Source: Bacilli bacterium
GTDB taxonomy: Bacteria; Bacillota_I; Bacilli_A; RFN20; CAG-826
NCBI GenBank assembly: GCA_024408655.1
Contig: JAKSUV010000005.1
Span: 2,730-66,729 of the forward strand
DNA: 64,000 nucleotides
Direction: 5' to 3'
Within the stretch, counting starts at the first letter, position 1. Each line of letters begins with the position of its first letter. This document shows positions 36,659 to 43,753 of this stretch, piece after piece. The position numbers were made by a program, and so were the translations under genes. A model generated the notes under the pieces. It was not told the DNA's origin and made no database searches. It saw nothing but the letters and a program-made list of their open reading frames with translations.

Positions 36659-36952
36659 TTATAAACAAGCTAAATAATTAATGACGGCGACGATTTGCTC
36701 AGGATCAGGATCAGGCTTTTCGGGTTTTGGTTGAGCGGCAATAAACACCGCTAAGAAAAAGAAGACAATCGCAAAACCAAACGTTAACCAGGTAATTACG
36801 CGTTCACTACCACGTTCTTTGGTTTTAGCAAAAACGTTTAAGCCACCACCAGTAATCGCACCAGAAGCACCTTCCGATTTACCACCTTGGAGTAAGCTTA
36901 AAACAATGATAATAAGGGCGATGATAAGAAAAACGTAATCAAACCACTTCAT
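36659..36952 (-). CDS. secG: Preprotein translocase subunit SecG
   Basis: Two TMs and the LLQGGKSEGASGAITGG motif typical of SecG. Confidence 0.85.
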   Translation of the reverse strand: MKWFDYVFLIIALIIIVLSLLQGGKSEGASGAITGGGLNVFAKTKERGSERVITWLTFGFAIVFFFLAVFIAAQPKPEKPDPDPEQIVAVINYLACL

Positions 36953-37067
36953 ATCTTTCTTGCCTTAATATCTTCGCATAATTATTTAATTATGCAAGTT
37001 ATAGTTTTTTTGCATTTAAAAATTGCCATTTCATATAAATTATTATATAATTTATATGTAGTTGAAT

Positions 37068-37751
37068 ATGATCTATATAACTGGCGATACACATGGAAAC
37101 ATTGATTTCGGTAAACTTGAGAAGTTAAGGGAAAGGAAATTAACTTACAAGGATATCTTAATTATCCTTGGCGATTGTGGCATTTGTTGGTCGTCATCCG
37201 ATTTAACCAAAAAATTAGAATTATATCGTTCTTTACACTGCACAATAATTTTCCTTGATGGGAATCACGAAAATTTTGATATGTTGGAATCTTTGCCGAT
37301 TGTCGAATGTTATGGCGCGTTAATGCATAAAGTAGATCAACATATTTATCACGTGATACGCGGTGAAATTATGGAAATTAATAAAATTAAATTTCTTTGT
37401 ATTGGCGGAGCGCATTCAATTGATATTATGTGGCGAGTTCCCGGAATCTCGTGGTGGCCAAGAGAAAATATTGATATACGCGATATCAATAACGCAAAAA
37501 AGAATCTAAGAAAATTCAATAACGAAGTTGACTTTGTTTTAACGCACTGCGTGGATTCTCCAACTGTAACTAAAATCTTAAAATTCGAAAGCGACAGTTC
37601 AACTGATCAACTTAAATTTATTGATAAAATTGTTAAATATAAATACTGGCTATTTGGTCATTATCATTTTGATTTTTGGCTAAATAAAAAGAAGCTTTGT
37701 CTGTATCAAGAAATTTGTAAAATAAAAAACGGGAAAATAATAAAAATATAA
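37068..37751 (+). CDS. Calcineurin-like metallophosphoesterase
   Basis: GDTHG, LGDCG, GNHEN and GHYH motifs. The ATG at 37068 is preferred to the TTG at 37062. The gene is AT-rich. Confidence 0.8.
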   Translation: MIYITGDTHGNIDFGKLEKLRERKLTYKDILIILGDCGICWSSSDLTKKLELYRSLHCTIIFLDGNHENFDMLESLPIVECYGALMHKVDQHIYHVIRGEIMEINKIKFLCIGGAHSIDIMWRVPGISWWPRENIDIRDINNAKKNLRKFNNEVDFVLTHCVDSPTVTKILKFESDSSTDQLKFIDKIVKYKYWLFGHYHFDFWLNKKKLCLYQEICKIKNGKIIKI

Positions 37752-37765
37752 ATTGAGCTAATTTA

Positions 37766-37774
37766 TGCTACAAT
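37766..37774 (+). promoter_or_regulatory. Extended -10 promoter element (TGcTACAAT) for the antitoxin-toxin transcript
   Basis: Read directly from the sequence; it lies about 25 nt upstream of the first repeat. Confidence 0.45.
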
Positions 37775-37799
37775 AATGTTGCAATCGAAAGGTTGCACA

Positions 37800-37889
37800 T
37801 TGCCGTTAGTCGAGATACGGCTAATAAAAGCTCGATGAAAAATCTTGCCGTTAGTCGAGATACGGGGTACAAAAGCTCGACTTAACAAT
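37800..37889 (+). ncRNA. Putative type III antitoxin RNA: two tandem 45-nt repeats
   Basis: The units are 37800-37844 and 37845-37889. They share TTGCCGTTAGTCGAGATACGG and AAAAGCTCGA. Both can form GCCGU/ACGG plus UCGAG/CUCGA pseudoknot pairings. Confidence 0.7.
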
Positions 37890-37891
37890 TT

Positions 37892-37916
37892 CGTTCTCGC
37901 CATGAGAACGTTTTTT
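37892..37916 (+). terminator. Rho-independent terminator between the repeats and the toxin gene
   Basis: CGTTCTC-gccat-GAGAACG followed by T6, located 15 nt before ATG 37931. Confidence 0.8.
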
Positions 37917-37930
37917 GTTAATATATAATT

Positions 37931-38350
37931 ATGCAAGAAGGAAAATTCTATTTTATTAAAGACATTTATTTTAAAAAATTCAATGATCCTTTCTTAATGC
38001 ATAATCATGAAAAAGTTGATGGCAAAAAACATAATCGTCCATGTTTTTTTGCCGTTAAAGACAAAGTTAATAAATCAATATTTTGGATGGTTCCTTTATC
38101 CACTAAGATTAATAAGTACCAGAAAATTTATGACTATAATATCAAAAAAAGAGGTTTTTGCGATTTGGTTTTGATTGCTCCGTTCTTCAAGCATTCTAAA
38201 AGCGCGTTTTTATTTCAAAACATTTTTCCAGTTACTGAAAAATATATATCGAATAAATATGTCGATGTTAATAATAAAGACATTGAACTAAGAAAGGATG
38301 TCGCAAAAAAAAGTTTTTTCTTTAGCGCGTCGCGCGCTTGTAAAGCATAG
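37931..38350 (+). CDS. ToxN/AbiQ/CptN-like type III toxin (endoribonuclease); C-terminus displaced by a frameshift in an A8 run
   Basis: N-terminus FYFIKDIYFKKFNDPFL.., plus NRPCFF, IFWMVPLSTKINKY and FPVTEKYI. The +1 frame from 38313 continues for 37 more codons to TGA 38424-38426. Confidence 0.65.
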   Translation: MQEGKFYFIKDIYFKKFNDPFLMHNHEKVDGKKHNRPCFFAVKDKVNKSIFWMVPLSTKINKYQKIYDYNIKKRGFCDLVLIAPFFKHSKSAFLFQNIFPVTEKYISNKYVDVNNKDIELRKDVAKKSFFFSASRACKA

Positions 38351-38454
38351 CAAAGGTTTTAAGAATATTTATCCTAACATCGATAAAATTAAAAAAGAGT
38401 TGGAAAACGAGTTAAAAAACGCCTGATGCCTTATTAGCCAATATTGCAAGGTTT

Positions 38455-38955
38455 TTAACTATTTTCATTATCCGCCCGTAATTCAAGCAGAATATCGCGG
38501 AGTTCGGCGGCGCGTTCAAAGTCACATTCTTTAGCAGCTTGCCGCATTTGTTTTTCAATTTCCTTAAGTTGTGCATTCATTTCGCTTTGACTCTTCTTAC
38601 CTTTCTTCTTTAATAAGGATTTTAAATCAGCACCTTGGTTCGAAATTGGTGGACGGATGTCTTTAATAATCGTCTCCGGAATAATCCCATTTTCTTTGTT
38701 ATAAGTATCTTGAATCTTACGGCGACGATTAGTTTCTTTAATCGCTTCTTTCATTGATTCAGTCATTGTATCGGCGTACATAATCACTTGACCGTTTTTA
38801 TTCCGCGCGGTCCGTCCAATAATTTGGATTAAGGAACGTGTACTCCGTAAGAAGCCTTCTTTATCGGCATCAAGAATACAAATTAAAGACACTTCGGGAA
38901 TATCAAGCCCTTCCCGTAAAAGATTAATACCCACTAAGACATCGTATTTACCTTA
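38455..38955 (-). pseudogene. Orphan duplicate of the 3'-terminal ~500 nt of uvrB
   Basis: Collinear with 40801-41300. It encodes only the last ~160 residues of UvrB (..[16 protein letters not shown].. to the stop) and lacks the upstream ~500 codons. Confidence 0.9.
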
Positions 38956-40729
38956 TATAGACGAACTTGCCTTCAAAACAAGTGGTGGCTACTTCAATAT
39001 CTTTAATAATTTTTGGATCACAATCAAAGGGACTATAATCGGAAAAAAGGAAATCAGCGTATTTCCCAACTTCAATACTGCCTCTTTCGTTTTCATAACC
39101 CGCCATCCACGCACCGTTAATCGTGAGCATGTTAATCGCATCTTGAACACTTAAGTTAATTTCGCGCCGCGGAGTTTGGTGTGGTAAATTAGCGTCGTAT
39201 CCTAAGATAATTGATGCCATATAATCAAAAACATCAATCGGCCCGCTCGCACAAGGACGGTCGGTCGAAATAGCCACCTGAATGCCATCGTGCATCAACA
39301 GATCACCTGGATATAATTTCTTGGCCCGTTCTTCACCAATAATCGTGTTATAAAGATCAAAACTATCGGCCCTCGGAGTTAACCAACCAGCGTTAAGGGC
39401 TGTACCAATTCCGTTATCCTTAATTAAAGCGTATTCACTATCATCAACTAAAATACAATGTCCAAGACTATTGCGGAATTTTTTACCATTCACCTTGTTC
39501 GAATTAACAAATGACTGCACCGCTTCGGCACACGAAGCATCCCCTAAAGTATGAGTATGAACAAGTAAACCTCTTTTATTAGCTTCGCTGACGATTTTGT
39601 TCATGTCATCATCGTCCCAAATTTTTTCACCACAGCCTTCATAAACAGCGGTATAAGGTTCTTTAAGAAAACCAGTGCCGGTTTCTAATACACCATCAGC
39701 GAACAATTTAATAAATTTCGGATCAACACGAGTACTCTTATACTTATTTCTAATATTTACAACTCTATCAAGTATTGTATCTAGTGATTCCGCTTTATAT
39801 TCAATAGTAGGATTATTGTATGAAGCGGTATAAAAACAAGTAAGATTATTTGCTTTATCAACCGTAGACAAGGCATCATAAATTTCTTCCGTGCCATCGA
39901 AATTTGTCCAGGCATCATAGTGACCTGTATAACCCATCTTATTTAAATAAGAAGAAGTTTTTTTGACTACGTTTTGATAACCAACCTTATCTAAAATTGG
40001 ATAGCCAAATCCTTTGCGTAAAACATACGTAACCGCTTCGTTAATTAATATGCCAGTCGCGTTCCCATTATTATCACGAACGATTCCCGTAACTGGGTCA
40101 GAAGCACCTGATTCTAAATTTATTCCAGCTGTAGTTAGTGTTTTTGTATTAACCCACGCTTCATGTAAACTTGATTCGGCAATATAAATAGGCACATTTT
40201 CATATGATCCGCTGCCGATACCATCCAAAACTTGTCTAGTGTAATATTCACCGCCTAATTCACTCAGCACCCTACAAGCTTGATCATATCCGTATCCAAA
40301 TATACGAGCATCGCTAGGAATAGGTTGCACCGGGTAATTCAGTTTCGCATAGTTTTCGATAATAGTAAGGATGCTATCTCGTGATTTAGGCTCTCCACTT
40401 TCATCATATGGCTCAATATAGCAACTATCCATAAACGCTTGTTCAAGCAAAAAGTGAGCATGGGCTTCAATACCCGAAGGCATAACAAAATTAGCAGAAT
40501 AGACCGAAGTCTTATTTCCAATATATTTATTAGCGCCTTCCACATCACCGACATAGACAAACTTACCATCTTTAACGGCGAAAGCGCGAACGAATTCGTT
40601 ATTTTTGTTAGCGGTATAAATTTGGTTACCGTAAACGACCATATCAGCGGCTTGAGTATTATTACCACAACTAGTGACTCCAAGAGTCATAATCATAGAA
40701 ACAAATAGTATCGATAATTTATTTTTCAT
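38948..40729 (-). CDS. Lipoprotein amidohydrolase (Amidohydro_3/YtcJ-like metal-dependent hydrolase)
   Basis: Lipobox LGVTSC; GIEAHAHF metal motif; HTHTLGD; a C-terminal FEGKFVY tail typical of the family. Confidence 0.8.
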
Positions 40730-40800: not shown

Positions 40801-41300
40801 TTATTCGTTTTCGTTATCCGCGCGTAATTCAAGTAAGATATCGCGAAGTTCGGCGGCGCGTTCAAAGTCATATTCTTTGGCCGCTTGACGCATTTGTTTT
40901 TCAATTTCCTTAAGTTGTGCGTTCATTTCACTCCGACTCTTCTTACCTTTCTTCTTTAATAAGGATTTTAAATCAGCGCCTTGGTTCGAAATTGGTGGAC
41001 GAATATCTTTAATAATCGTCTCCGGAATAATCCCGTTTTCTTTGTTATAAGTATCTTGAATCTTACGGCGACGATTAGTTTCTTTAATCGCTTCTTTCAT
41101 TGATTCAGTCATTGTATCGGCGTACATAATCACTTGACCGTTTTTATTCCGCGCGGTCCGTCCAATAATTTGGATTAAGGAACGTGTACTCCGTAAGAAG
41201 CCTTCTTTATCGGCATCAAGAATACAAATTAAAGACACTTCGGGAATATCAAGCCCTTCCCGTAAAAGATTAATACCCACTAAGACATCATATTTACCTT
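40801..41300 (-). repeat. Direct-repeat partner of 38455-38955 (3' end of the intact uvrB)
   Basis: Base-by-base comparison gives 22 mismatches in the stop-proximal ~235 nt and 1 in the remaining ~265 nt. Confidence 0.9.
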
Positions 41301-42783
41301 TACGTAATTGATAAATGATTTCACTCCGCTCCAGGGTTTTGGTTTCGTTATGTAAATAAGTCACTTTAAAACCCCGGTCTTTTAAATAGGCCGTTAAATC
41401 TTCCGCCATCTTAATAGTGAGAGTCACTAGCATTACACGTTCATGGTTTTTAATTCGCTTTTTAACTTCGTTAATAATATCATCAACTTGGCCAAGGGTT
41501 CGCCGCACTTCAACTTTTGGATCAAGGAGTCCAGTCGGACGAATAATTTGTTCAACGACTTTGTTATCCGCCCGATTTAATTCATAGTCACCTGGCGTAG
41601 CGGAAGTACAAATGGTTAACGGCATCACCTGTTCAAATTCCGTGAAATTAAGGGGTCGATTATCAAGAGCACTTGGTAAACGGAAACCGTATTCCACTAA
41701 CACTTCCTTCCGGATCCGGTCACCATTATACATACCTCTAACTTGCGGAATGCTTACATGGCTTTCATCAATCACTAACATGAAGTCTTTTGGGAAATAA
41801 TCAATTAAATTAAACGGCCGTTCGCCTGGTTTTCTTCCATCAATATGGCGCGCGTAGTTTTCAATCCCTTTACACATCCCAAATTCAAGCATGCTTTCAA
41901 TATCTTGACGGGTCCGCATATCAAGCCGCTCGGCCTCAAGTAACTTCCCTTGTTTTTTAAAATAAGCGAGCCGTTCTTTTAATTCTTGTTTAATGCTTTC
42001 GGTCGCATGCGCAATCTTTGCACGCGTGGAAGCGTGGTCATAAGCGGGAAAGATTGGGTAAGTTTTAAAACTCTCTTTAATTTCGCCAGTAATCGGATCC
42101 ACTGCTTCAATTTTTTCAATCTCATCGCCAAAGCAATCAATCCGAATAAAAAAGTCACGGGTATGAACCGGCATAATTTCGATAATATCACCCCGGTTAC
42201 GGAAGGTGCCGGGCGCTAATTCTAAATTATTGCGCGTATATTGTGCGTCCACTAATTTGGTGTAGAAACTTTTGTGGTCAAGTGTTTCACCAACGCGAAT
42301 TTCAAACACGAGTCGCCGATATTCATCAGGATCAGTTAAACCATAAATGCTTGCGACTGAAGCCACAATAATCGTGTCGCGTCTTTCTAAAATCGAGTTA
42401 ATCGCGCTTGTTCTAAGCATTTCGATTTCGTCATTCATCACCGCGTTTTTATCAATATAGGTATCGGTGCTCGGTAAATAGGCTTCGGGTTGATAAAAAT
42501 CGAAGTTAGAAACGAAATATTCAACGCGGTTATTGGGGAAAAGCTCTTTAAATTCACCATAAAGTTGACCCGCTAAAGTTTTGTTATGGACTAAAACTAG
42601 TGTCGGCCGTTGCACTTGTTCAATGACATTCGCGATCGTAAAAGTTTTGCCCGTTCCGGTTGCGCCAAGCAAAACTTGGACGGGTTTCTTTTTTTTAATG
42701 CCTGCCACTAGTGAAGCAATCGCTTCCGGTTGATCACCCGTTGGCTTATAATGCGAAACAATTTTAAAACGTTGATTATTCAT
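40801..42783 (-). CDS. uvrB: Excinuclease ABC subunit B
   Basis: [19 protein letters not shown] and DESH motifs, plus the C-terminal UVR domain [10 protein letters not shown] prefer the start MNNQRFKIV (42783) over the track's 42879. Confidence 0.95.
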
Positions 42784-43753
42784 CCTTGTTTTTCTTTTGT
42801 TTTTTAATTTTAATCGGTACAAAGCCTTCGCCAAAAACATGGGTAGCGCTCGTAATCGTGATAAAGGCATCTTTATCAATTTTCGCGATTTCTTCTTTCA
42901 CTTCGGGTAAATTCCGTTTATCAACGACAAACCGGACTAAGCGATATTTCTTTTTCGTGTAACCGCCTTCAACATCGATGATCGTTGAGGTGCGACCAAG
43001 AATATTAACAATGTATTTATTAATATCTTGGTAACGCACGGAAATAATATCAATGACACAAGCGTTGTTACTTCGGACATAAAGAATATCAATGACAATC
43101 GCGCTTAATAAGGCGGATAAGACACCAATAAAGGCCGGCATCACGTGCTTAGGAATCGCAAAAGCGCTCACAAAAATAATTAATCCATCGAAGACAAATG
43201 AAGTGATAGAGACTTTGATGTGTAAATATTTATAGCAAATAAAACAAAGGACATCTAGACCGCCGGTTGAGCCTTCGCCAATGAAGGTGATAGCGACGCC
43301 TAAACCAACGAACAAACCACCGAAAATACCCGCCAACAACAAAACTAAATCAGGGTCGTTAGCCACAATAGTGATATCAAAATATTCGATGATGGAATCA
43401 AACATTCCGGTATGAATAATTAAACTTAAAAAGGCGGGAAAAGTGAAAGTCGCAATTAATGTATTGAAGGTAAATTTCTTACCAATAAAAATAAACGATA
43501 CAACAAATAAAATAATATTAATCGACCACACCACGATATCAACAACGTTAAACCCGACAACGCCTTCTAAGTAATGGTTAATGATGATACCAATGCCGCT
43601 CACGCCGCCTGCCACTACTTGCGCTGGTTCTAAGAATACTGCCGTGCCAAAGGCTAAAACAAAGCTACCAAGCACACAAAGTAAAATATGTTTAATGTCC
43701 TTCTTATGTTTAATTAAGAAGTTAATTAGTTTGTTATCTTTACTTAATGCCAT
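42776..43753 (-). CDS. YitT-family membrane protein (DUF2179 C-domain)
   Basis: Multi-TM N-part ([10 protein letters not shown]) and a soluble C-terminal domain; typical YitT layout. Confidence 0.75.

Follow-up and report, generated by a model that had tools for sequence, protein, structure and literature searches.

Does the locus at positions 37766-38426 of a 64-kb stretch of DNA from a Bacilli bacterium (assembly GCA_024408655.1, contig JAKSUV010000005.1) belong to a type III toxin-antitoxin (TA) system, and if so, does it still encode a working toxin? Two tandem 45-nt repeats lie there upstream of a small gene with a frameshift. An earlier note had read the arrangement of promoter, tandem repeats, terminator and small endoribonuclease gene as the layout of a type III TA system, and examination of toxin homology, of repeats at homologous loci and of covariation failed to refute this. 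We scanned the whole 64-kb stretch, called the window here, and all coordinates are window positions; the features of the locus are on the forward strand. In the reading that we regard as probable, this is a type III TA locus of the CptIN family in which the toxin gene has become a pseudogene and the antitoxin array has been retained, that is, a decaying and most likely disarmed module.

The small gene encodes a homolog of CptN

The toxin gene cptN starts with the ATG at 37931 and, as it stands, forms an open reading frame (ORF) of 139 aa (37931-38350), made up of 127 native and 12 out-of-frame residues. Removal of one A from a run of eight (A8) yields a protein of 164 aa, which is referred to below as the repaired toxin. 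The repaired toxin matched the NCBIfam equivalog NF047359 (type III toxin-antitoxin system CptIN family toxin) with 156.8 bits over profile positions 1-150 (cutoff 90), and the unrepaired ORF reached 141.2 bits over positions 1-119 of 150. NF047359 was the only NCBIfam match, and the only PDB sequence match was CptN of Eubacterium rectale (4RMO_A, E 6.9e-25, query residues 4-159 versus chain residues 4-154). PHROG 33519, a family of unknown function, matches the toxin at 8e-18. No significant Pfam-A match was obtained for the repaired toxin (sub-threshold 15.9 bits, cutoff 27), the ToxN/AbiQ family gave no Pfam-A match at E<=1, and PADLOC gave no match for the toxin. The earlier note had called the protein ToxN/CptN-like; in these searches the CptN part of the description was borne out by NF047359 and 4RMO, and the ToxN/AbiQ part found no counterpart at the sequence level. 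Its statement that the locus is unannotated likewise holds for the RNA, for which a search of Rfam at E<=10 over 37000-39000 returned no match, and only partly for the protein, since the truncated 139-aa ORF is present in NCBI nr.

The AlphaFold2 model of the repaired 164 aa (predicted local distance difference test score, pLDDT, 91.8) contains helices predicted at 122-140 and 150-163 and is consistent with a Kid/MazF-like fold, consisting of a twisted antiparallel beta-sheet with four flanking helices. When this model was compared with the PDB using Foldseek, the best match was again 4RMO_A (E 5e-14, template modelling (TM) scores 0.83/0.88, 32% identity), followed by AbiQ (4GLK, TM 0.62, 17% identity) and then by MazF/Kid/CcdB proteins. 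The active site of E. rectale CptN (PMC4627078) was mapped through the 4RMO alignment: Ser51-Ser52-Arg53 corresponds to Ser57-Thr58-Lys59, Ser85 to Ser91 and Tyr104 to Tyr110. Asp81 is not conserved and corresponds to Lys87. Ser57 and Tyr110 are almost unchanged across the 23 homologs that were aligned.

The repeats belong to a family of covarying pseudoknot RNAs

The two head-to-tail 45-nt units that had been noticed upstream of the gene were found at 37800-37844 (cptI repeat 1) and 37845-37889 (cptI repeat 2); their first 21 nt and AAAAGCTCGA are identical in both. The repeat core of 36 nt is 89% identical at the 45-nt spacing, 35 of the 45 positions match over the whole unit, and the array (2.0 copies) ends 41 nt upstream of the cptN ATG. 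It is the only adjacent direct repeat with a period of 30-70 and at least 70% identity in the window (shuffled windows: 0-0.05). Tandem Repeats Finder (TRF), run at a minimum score of 30, did not list the array, since the ten mismatches between its two copies leave the score too low. A nhmmer profile based on sequence only, without a structure term, was started from 7 units that belong to 6 other loci. In its first iteration this profile matched unit 1 (E 2.7e-5); iteration then gave matches to both units, which were its only matches in the 64 kb.

The pairings proposed for the repeats, GCCGU with ACGGC and UCGAG with CUCGA, are complementary as described. They give two stems, S1 and S2, in the order S1 5' arm, 2-3 nt, S2 5' arm, 2 nt, S1 3' arm, A-rich loop of 9-10 nt, S2 3' arm and A-rich tail. 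In repeat 1, 37802-37806 pairs with 37817-37821 (S1) and 37809-37814 with 37831-37836 (S2), and the A-rich loop L2 occupies 37822-37830; in repeat 2, S1 has 4 bp (37848-37851 with 37862-37865) and S2 has 7 bp (37853-37859 with 37876-37882).

ViennaRNA cannot predict pseudoknots, and because the folding energies of single units are not significant, the support for this structure is comparative. A total of 107 distinct repeat units from 66 loci were aligned with MAFFT without a structure reference (alignment A2), and the helices were imposed on its columns (S1, 11-15 with 27-31; S2, 17-23 with 46-52). Standard pairs filled 84.1% of the cells, compared to 28-37% when the 3' partners were slid by 1-3 columns; the paired fraction was 89.5% for S1 and 80.1% for S2. 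Changes on both sides occurred at 11 of the 12 pairs, and 205 double-change cells were counted versus 73 ± 12 in shuffles. The covariation score was 0.424 versus at most 0.141 for slid partners, and none of 500 shuffles reached the observed value. The window S1 itself (GCCGU/ACGGC) differs from the consensus (GUCGC/GCGAC) on both sides at two pairs. Both helices strongly covary across the 107 units, and folding of the repeat RNA as an H-type pseudoknot, as claimed before, is supported by this comparison.

The A-rich inter-repeat junction UGAAAAAUC (37836-37844, with an A-run at 37838-37842) is predicted to be the site at which CptN processes the RNA. This proposal of the earlier note agrees with the alignment of UGAAAAAUC with the nearly invariant AAAU that starts the units of other loci. 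CptI of E. rectale is cut at GA^AAG, which leaves a cyclic phosphate on A45 (PMC4627078). At the end of the array, the 3' tail of repeat 2, CUUAACAAU, is degenerate relative to the junction motif.

Homologous toxin genes are preceded by the same type of repeats

Homologs of the toxin were sought in one genome per GTDB species (185,579 representative genomes); 171 relatives were present among the candidates examined, and the best 80 were fetched. The closest relative among the representative genomes is 45% identical to the toxin, so the window locus represents a divergent subclade. In 78 loci, the 400 nt upstream of the toxin gene were searched for the best tandem repeat with a period of 44-52 and at least 65% identity. 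Such repeats were found in 65 of the 78 loci, compared to 0 of 78 shuffled sequences and 0 of 71 stretches of real DNA located 1.2-1.6 kb upstream. Two units were present in 57 of 67 loci, and in 54 of 67 the stretch from the last unit to the ATG contained a hairpin followed by a T-run. Homologs are thus preceded by repeats and a terminator-like hairpin, as expected from the earlier reading.

The toxin frame is broken while the repeats are conserved

The frameshift implied by the earlier note is real in the sequence. It is located at the A8 homopolymer (38305-38312), and the ORF continues in the +1 frame as 38298-38426; A7 would restore the frame. The 3' part of cptN (38313-38426, stop codon 38424-38426) encodes the two C-terminal helices, which are residues 128-164 of the repaired protein, and in tblastn the 3' fragment matches residues 126-164 at 100%. 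The frameshift truncates CptN after residue 127, so that both helices are lost, and an intact toxin frame of about 150-165 aa was not found in the window. In 4RMO the counterpart of the lost region contributes the electropositive helix H3 and the Val129/Met132/Phe139 pocket of interface 1, the larger RNA interface. Since the lost helices include the counterpart of the main RNA-binding interface in 4RMO, the toxin is most likely inactive. This lowers the claim of a functional CptIN system but not that of an origin in this family. Rescue of the frame by -1 ribosomal frameshifting on the A-run was considered and rejected, as a TAG would stop the shifted frame; a +1 shift or slippage at the RNA level would be needed to restore it.

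Logan assemblies supplied the nearest relatives, two intact alleles: P0001, present at loci L001 and L002, has 161 aa and 83% identity, and P0026, from locus L083, has 164 aa. Both read DVEREVFSLARR across the A8 site and have no homopolymer there; at the position of the A-tract the intact alleles read GAAAGAGAA, and the A-tract is lineage-specific. Within the window, 15 other long homopolymer runs that lie inside intact long ORFs are unbroken, and intact long ORFs make up 91% of the window. Together, these two observations argue against pervasive homopolymer errors.

A sister metagenome-assembled genome (MAG) contains a nearly identical locus (L084; 8685-9067 of JAKSUW010000003.1, GCA_024408565.1). 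Its repeats match those of the window at 89 of 90 nt, the one difference being at a loop position. The cptN gene of L084 carries an in-frame deletion of 318 nt between 9-nt direct repeats AAAGACATT (37958-37966 and 38276-38284 in the window), which leaves a remnant of 24 codons; the homopolymer is A6 compared to A8 in the window, and no gene is called in the locus interval. Judged from the two sequences, the toxin gene is broken twice independently, in the window and in L084.

The comparison with L002 gave a different picture for the RNA. The repeats of the window and L002 are identical at 89 of 90 nt, whereas the 3' end of the metallophosphoesterase gene located upstream is 81.5% and the cptN coding DNA 75-80% identical. 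The repeats are thus far more conserved than the flanking coding DNA, a pattern that marks the RNA sequence as the target of selection.

Promoter, leader hairpin and terminator

The extended -10 element TGcTACAAT reported before is present at 37766-37774 as a consensus match and would place the transcription start at ~37780-37782; its promoter function is predicted from the sequence. The element is identical in L084 and reads TGcTATAAT in L002. It has no good -35 element, and a consensus promoter scan did not call TGcTACAAT. Another promoter-like sequence (ATGAGA-16-TATAAT, 37902-37929) was rejected as a promoter of cptN, as it overlaps the terminator, lacks conservation in L002 and would have transcription begin within the ORF.

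A 5' leader hairpin, UGCAAUC-GAAA-GGUUGCA (37780-37797), begins where a transcript driven by the -10 element would start, and would form the 5' end of the cptI transcript. This feature is absent from the earlier note. The hairpin has 7 bp and a GNRA tetraloop (-8.3 kcal/mol, z -3.9), is directly abutted by unit 1 and is identical in L084. At the predicted cptI 5' end of most loci with CptN homologs, the first repeat is immediately preceded by a short hairpin whose loop is often a GNRA tetraloop: in 66 loci, the 32 nt upstream of unit 1 had a mean folding energy of -5.4 kcal/mol versus -2.1 for shuffles. The leader hairpin may stabilise the 5' end or may mimic helix S2 before the first cleavage site. 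No junction motif follows the leader hairpin in the clade of the window.

Between the antitoxin array and the toxin gene lies an intrinsic terminator (37892-37916). As described in the earlier note, it consists of a hairpin (37892-37910) and T6 (37911-37916), and 14 nt separate T6 from the ATG. Its fold has -8.9 kcal/mol (z -4.2), with 7 bp according to the RNA fold and 8 pairs according to the terminator scan, which found no other terminator-like site within 37000-39000. In L002 the stem is conserved and the loop is different; the terminator of L084 is identical to that of the window.

Comparison with known type III systems

The cptIN family was defined by Blower et al. (2012; PMC3401426) with repeats of 40-48 nt in 1.9-3.4 copies, and the two 45-nt copies of the window fall within this range. 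The structure of E. rectale CptIN (PDB 4RMO; Rao et al., 2015; PMC4627078) also has a CptI of 45 nt. The two systems share the fold of the toxin (~32% identity over the full length), with the Ser-Ser/Thr-Arg/Lys triad, a Ser and a Tyr aligned, as well as the 45-nt unit, the presence of two repeats, the terminator between repeats and toxin gene, and the chromosomal location in a Firmicutes-type host. Their CptI RNAs have a common topology (S1 5' arm, short L1, S2 5' arm, S1 3' arm, A-rich L2, S2 3' arm, A-rich junction). The E. rectale RNA differs in the length of L1 (1 versus 2-3 nt in the window), S2 (4-5 versus 5-7 bp) and L2 (8 versus 9-10 nt), and the repeat sequences are unrelated in detail. 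In addition, only the toxin ORF of the window is frameshifted, and unit 1 of the window lacks the usual junction motif.

Loci of the cptIN family with shortened toxins and complete sets of repeats have been reported before (PMC3401426), in Bryantella formatexigens, Lachnospiraceae 9_1_43BFAA, Methanococcus vannielii and Pyramidobacter piscolens. There, as in the window, a shortened toxin ORF lies behind a full repeat array and a terminator. The window locus is different in that its lesion is the insertion of a single base in a homopolymer, that a second, independent lesion is seen in the sister MAG and that it can be compared with intact alleles.

ToxIN (Pectobacterium atrosepticum, Bacillus thuringiensis), AbiQ/antiQ (Lactococcus) and TenpIN (Photorhabdus) share with the locus the promoter, the tandem repeats, the terminator and the endoribonuclease. 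They also share the logic of a toxin that processes its own pseudoknot antitoxin and the Kid/MazF-like fold. The repeats of ToxI have 36 nt and those of TenpI 39-57 nt, compared to 45 nt here, and ToxIN forms a triangular 3:3 complex whereas CptIN forms a 2:2 ring. No NCBIfam or PDB sequence match to TenpN was found for the toxin, as the searches returned CptIN and 4RMO only. The sequence matches place the locus in the CptIN family and not in ToxIN, AbiQ or TenpIN; every testable defining feature of CptIN is present except an intact toxin frame.

Genomic context and distribution of CptN homologs

The locus and the metallophosphoesterase gene upstream (Pfam Metallophos) are located on the forward strand, whereas nearly all neighbouring genes are on the reverse strand. 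They lie in an islet of low GC content (~36800-38450; 0.29-0.32 versus about 0.40-0.44 in the flanks). This region is 97.5-100% identical to L084, compared to 88-95% for the flanks, which suggests that an islet of roughly 1.6 kb was recently shared, by exchange or by a sweep. The metallophosphoesterase was considered as a conserved partner of cptIN and rejected, since it is unlinked in 80 distant loci and linked only in the window, in L002 (tblastn) and in L084 (gene table).

Downstream of the locus, the window contains a duplicate of the uvrB 3' end: besides the full-length gene (40801-42879, reverse strand) there is a C-terminal copy of 159 aa (38455-38934, reverse strand). The C-terminal copy is 98% identical to residues 534-691 at the protein level and 94% identical over 300 nt at the DNA level, with a spacing of 2346 nt. 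Both copies flank a gene for an amidohydrolase-like protein of 593 aa (38948-40729, reverse strand). In the sister MAG with L084, uvrB occurs once and the amidohydrolase is missing, and it looks as if the amidohydrolase-like gene was inserted at the 3' end of uvrB with target duplication.

Relatives of CptN with 33-41% identity, all annotated as 'hypothetical protein', were found on seven plasmids (NZ_CP048628.1, NZ_CP075965.1, NZ_CP075963.1, AP012045.1, NZ_CP017963.1, NC_019558.1 and NZ_CP084160.1) of Megamonas, Clostridium perfringens, Oscillibacter, Virgibacillus, Planococcus and Fusobacterium. A survey in 2012 found cptIN on chromosomes only (PMC3401426). A search of the INPHARED phage collection yielded no CptN relatives, despite the match of the toxin to PHROG 33519. 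CptN homologs are also present in methanogenic archaea (L016, L041 and L063; Methanimicrococcus, Methanolapillus). The two archaeal loci that were scanned for repeats, L016 and L041, both have recognisable repeats of the CptI type, and the same holds for a CptN homolog in a Verrucomicrobia MAG (L007). These archaeal and Verrucomicrobia members lie well outside the Clostridia, which are home to most members.

Discussion

Toxin homology, homology and covariation of the repeats, the terminator and the frameshift are results of the analysis described here. For transcription, RNA excess by termination, self-processing, the 2:2 complex and release of the RNase we follow the literature on CptIN and ToxIN (PMC4627078, PMC3401426). 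According to the model for E. rectale CptIN, a constitutive promoter would give rise to a transcript consisting of the 5' hairpin and the two 45-nt repeats. Most transcripts would end at the terminator and provide an excess of antitoxin RNA, and read-through would yield the cptN mRNA. CptN, an endoribonuclease with a Kid/MazF fold, would cleave the repeat precursor at the A-rich junctions, and each processed 45-nt pseudoknot would bridge two CptN monomers, resulting in a closed, inactive ring of protein and RNA. Should the supply of the labile RNA fail, free CptN would cut cellular RNAs and growth would stop. In the locus analysed here, the insertion of one base (A7 to A8) would truncate CptN and thereby disarm the module, while the antitoxin half looks fully functional.

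Several observations weigh against this reading of a decayed CptIN locus. Neither the beta core nor any of the mapped catalytic residues is lost from the truncated CptN, and residual activity is therefore possible. On the RNA side, the thermodynamic folds of single units are no better than shuffles (z -0.5 to -1.2), and the processing pattern is uncertain, with unit 1 lacking the usual 5' junction motif and unit 2 having a degenerate 3' motif. No Shine-Dalgarno sequence precedes the cptN ATG, which is likewise the case for the intact alleles. Finally, a sequencing artefact or a hypermutable tract would likewise account for the difference between A8 and A6 in the two assemblies. Length errors classically arise in homopolymers, and an error of this kind in the assembly of the MAG would mean that the CptIN system is fully active, with a true A7 encoding an intact CptN of 164 aa that is held by CptI. 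Repair of the one base results in a full-length match to the CptIN model (positions 1-150) and to 4RMO, an intact allele of the same length exists (P0026), and neither the antitoxin array nor the promoter or terminator is damaged, all three being highly conserved. However, the 15 other long homopolymer runs in ORFs of the window are unbroken, and in the related MAG the toxin was destroyed by an unambiguous deletion of 318 nt, which means that loss of the toxin in this lineage is real at least once. We consider such an error, and with it an active module, unlikely.

The same A-tract could be a switch prone to slippage, with cptN OFF at A6 and A8 and ON at A7, or could allow a trickle of CptN through transcriptional slippage. 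Between the two islets, which share 99-100% identity, a difference of two bases falls precisely on this tract, and the tract is specific to this lineage, since the intact alleles read GAAAGAGAA. Yet there are two observations only, both OFF, no ON allele with an A7 tract was found, and the irreversible deletion in L084 fits decay better; a switch appears less likely still than an assembly error. That the locus is no TA system at all, the repeats in front of a small, unrelated gene having arisen as a chance duplication or serving as a cis-regulatory leader or attenuator, would agree with the absence of Rfam, Pfam and PADLOC matches and with the non-significant folding of single units. This explanation is contradicted by the strong match to the CptIN toxin model and 4RMO, by the sequence homology of the repeats to those upstream of other cptN genes together with the family-wide covariation, and by the conservation of the repeats beyond that of the neighbouring genes. 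It is effectively refuted, and we give it hardly any weight. The evidence is best explained by a CptIN locus with a decayed toxin gene and a retained antitoxin array.

The known workings of type III systems are unchanged by this locus, which belongs to the known CptIN family as a new, divergent and probably disarmed member. Pipelines that annotate proteins only overlook the RNA half of type III TA loci, and the CptI pseudoknot consensus of 107 units from 66 loci, or the recurrent 5' leader hairpin, could seed a covariance model for automatic detection. If the switch were true, the toxin of a type III TA or abortive-infection system would be phase-variable or made in a trickle, with a constitutive RNA antitoxin. 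Asymmetric decay is expected of TA modules, as the toxin can be safely lost and the antitoxin cannot. The two independent toxin lesions in near-identical islets, with the antitoxin array 99% conserved, would be a natural example of such decay, and the conserved cptI array might have been kept as an orphan antitoxin after the loss of the toxin.

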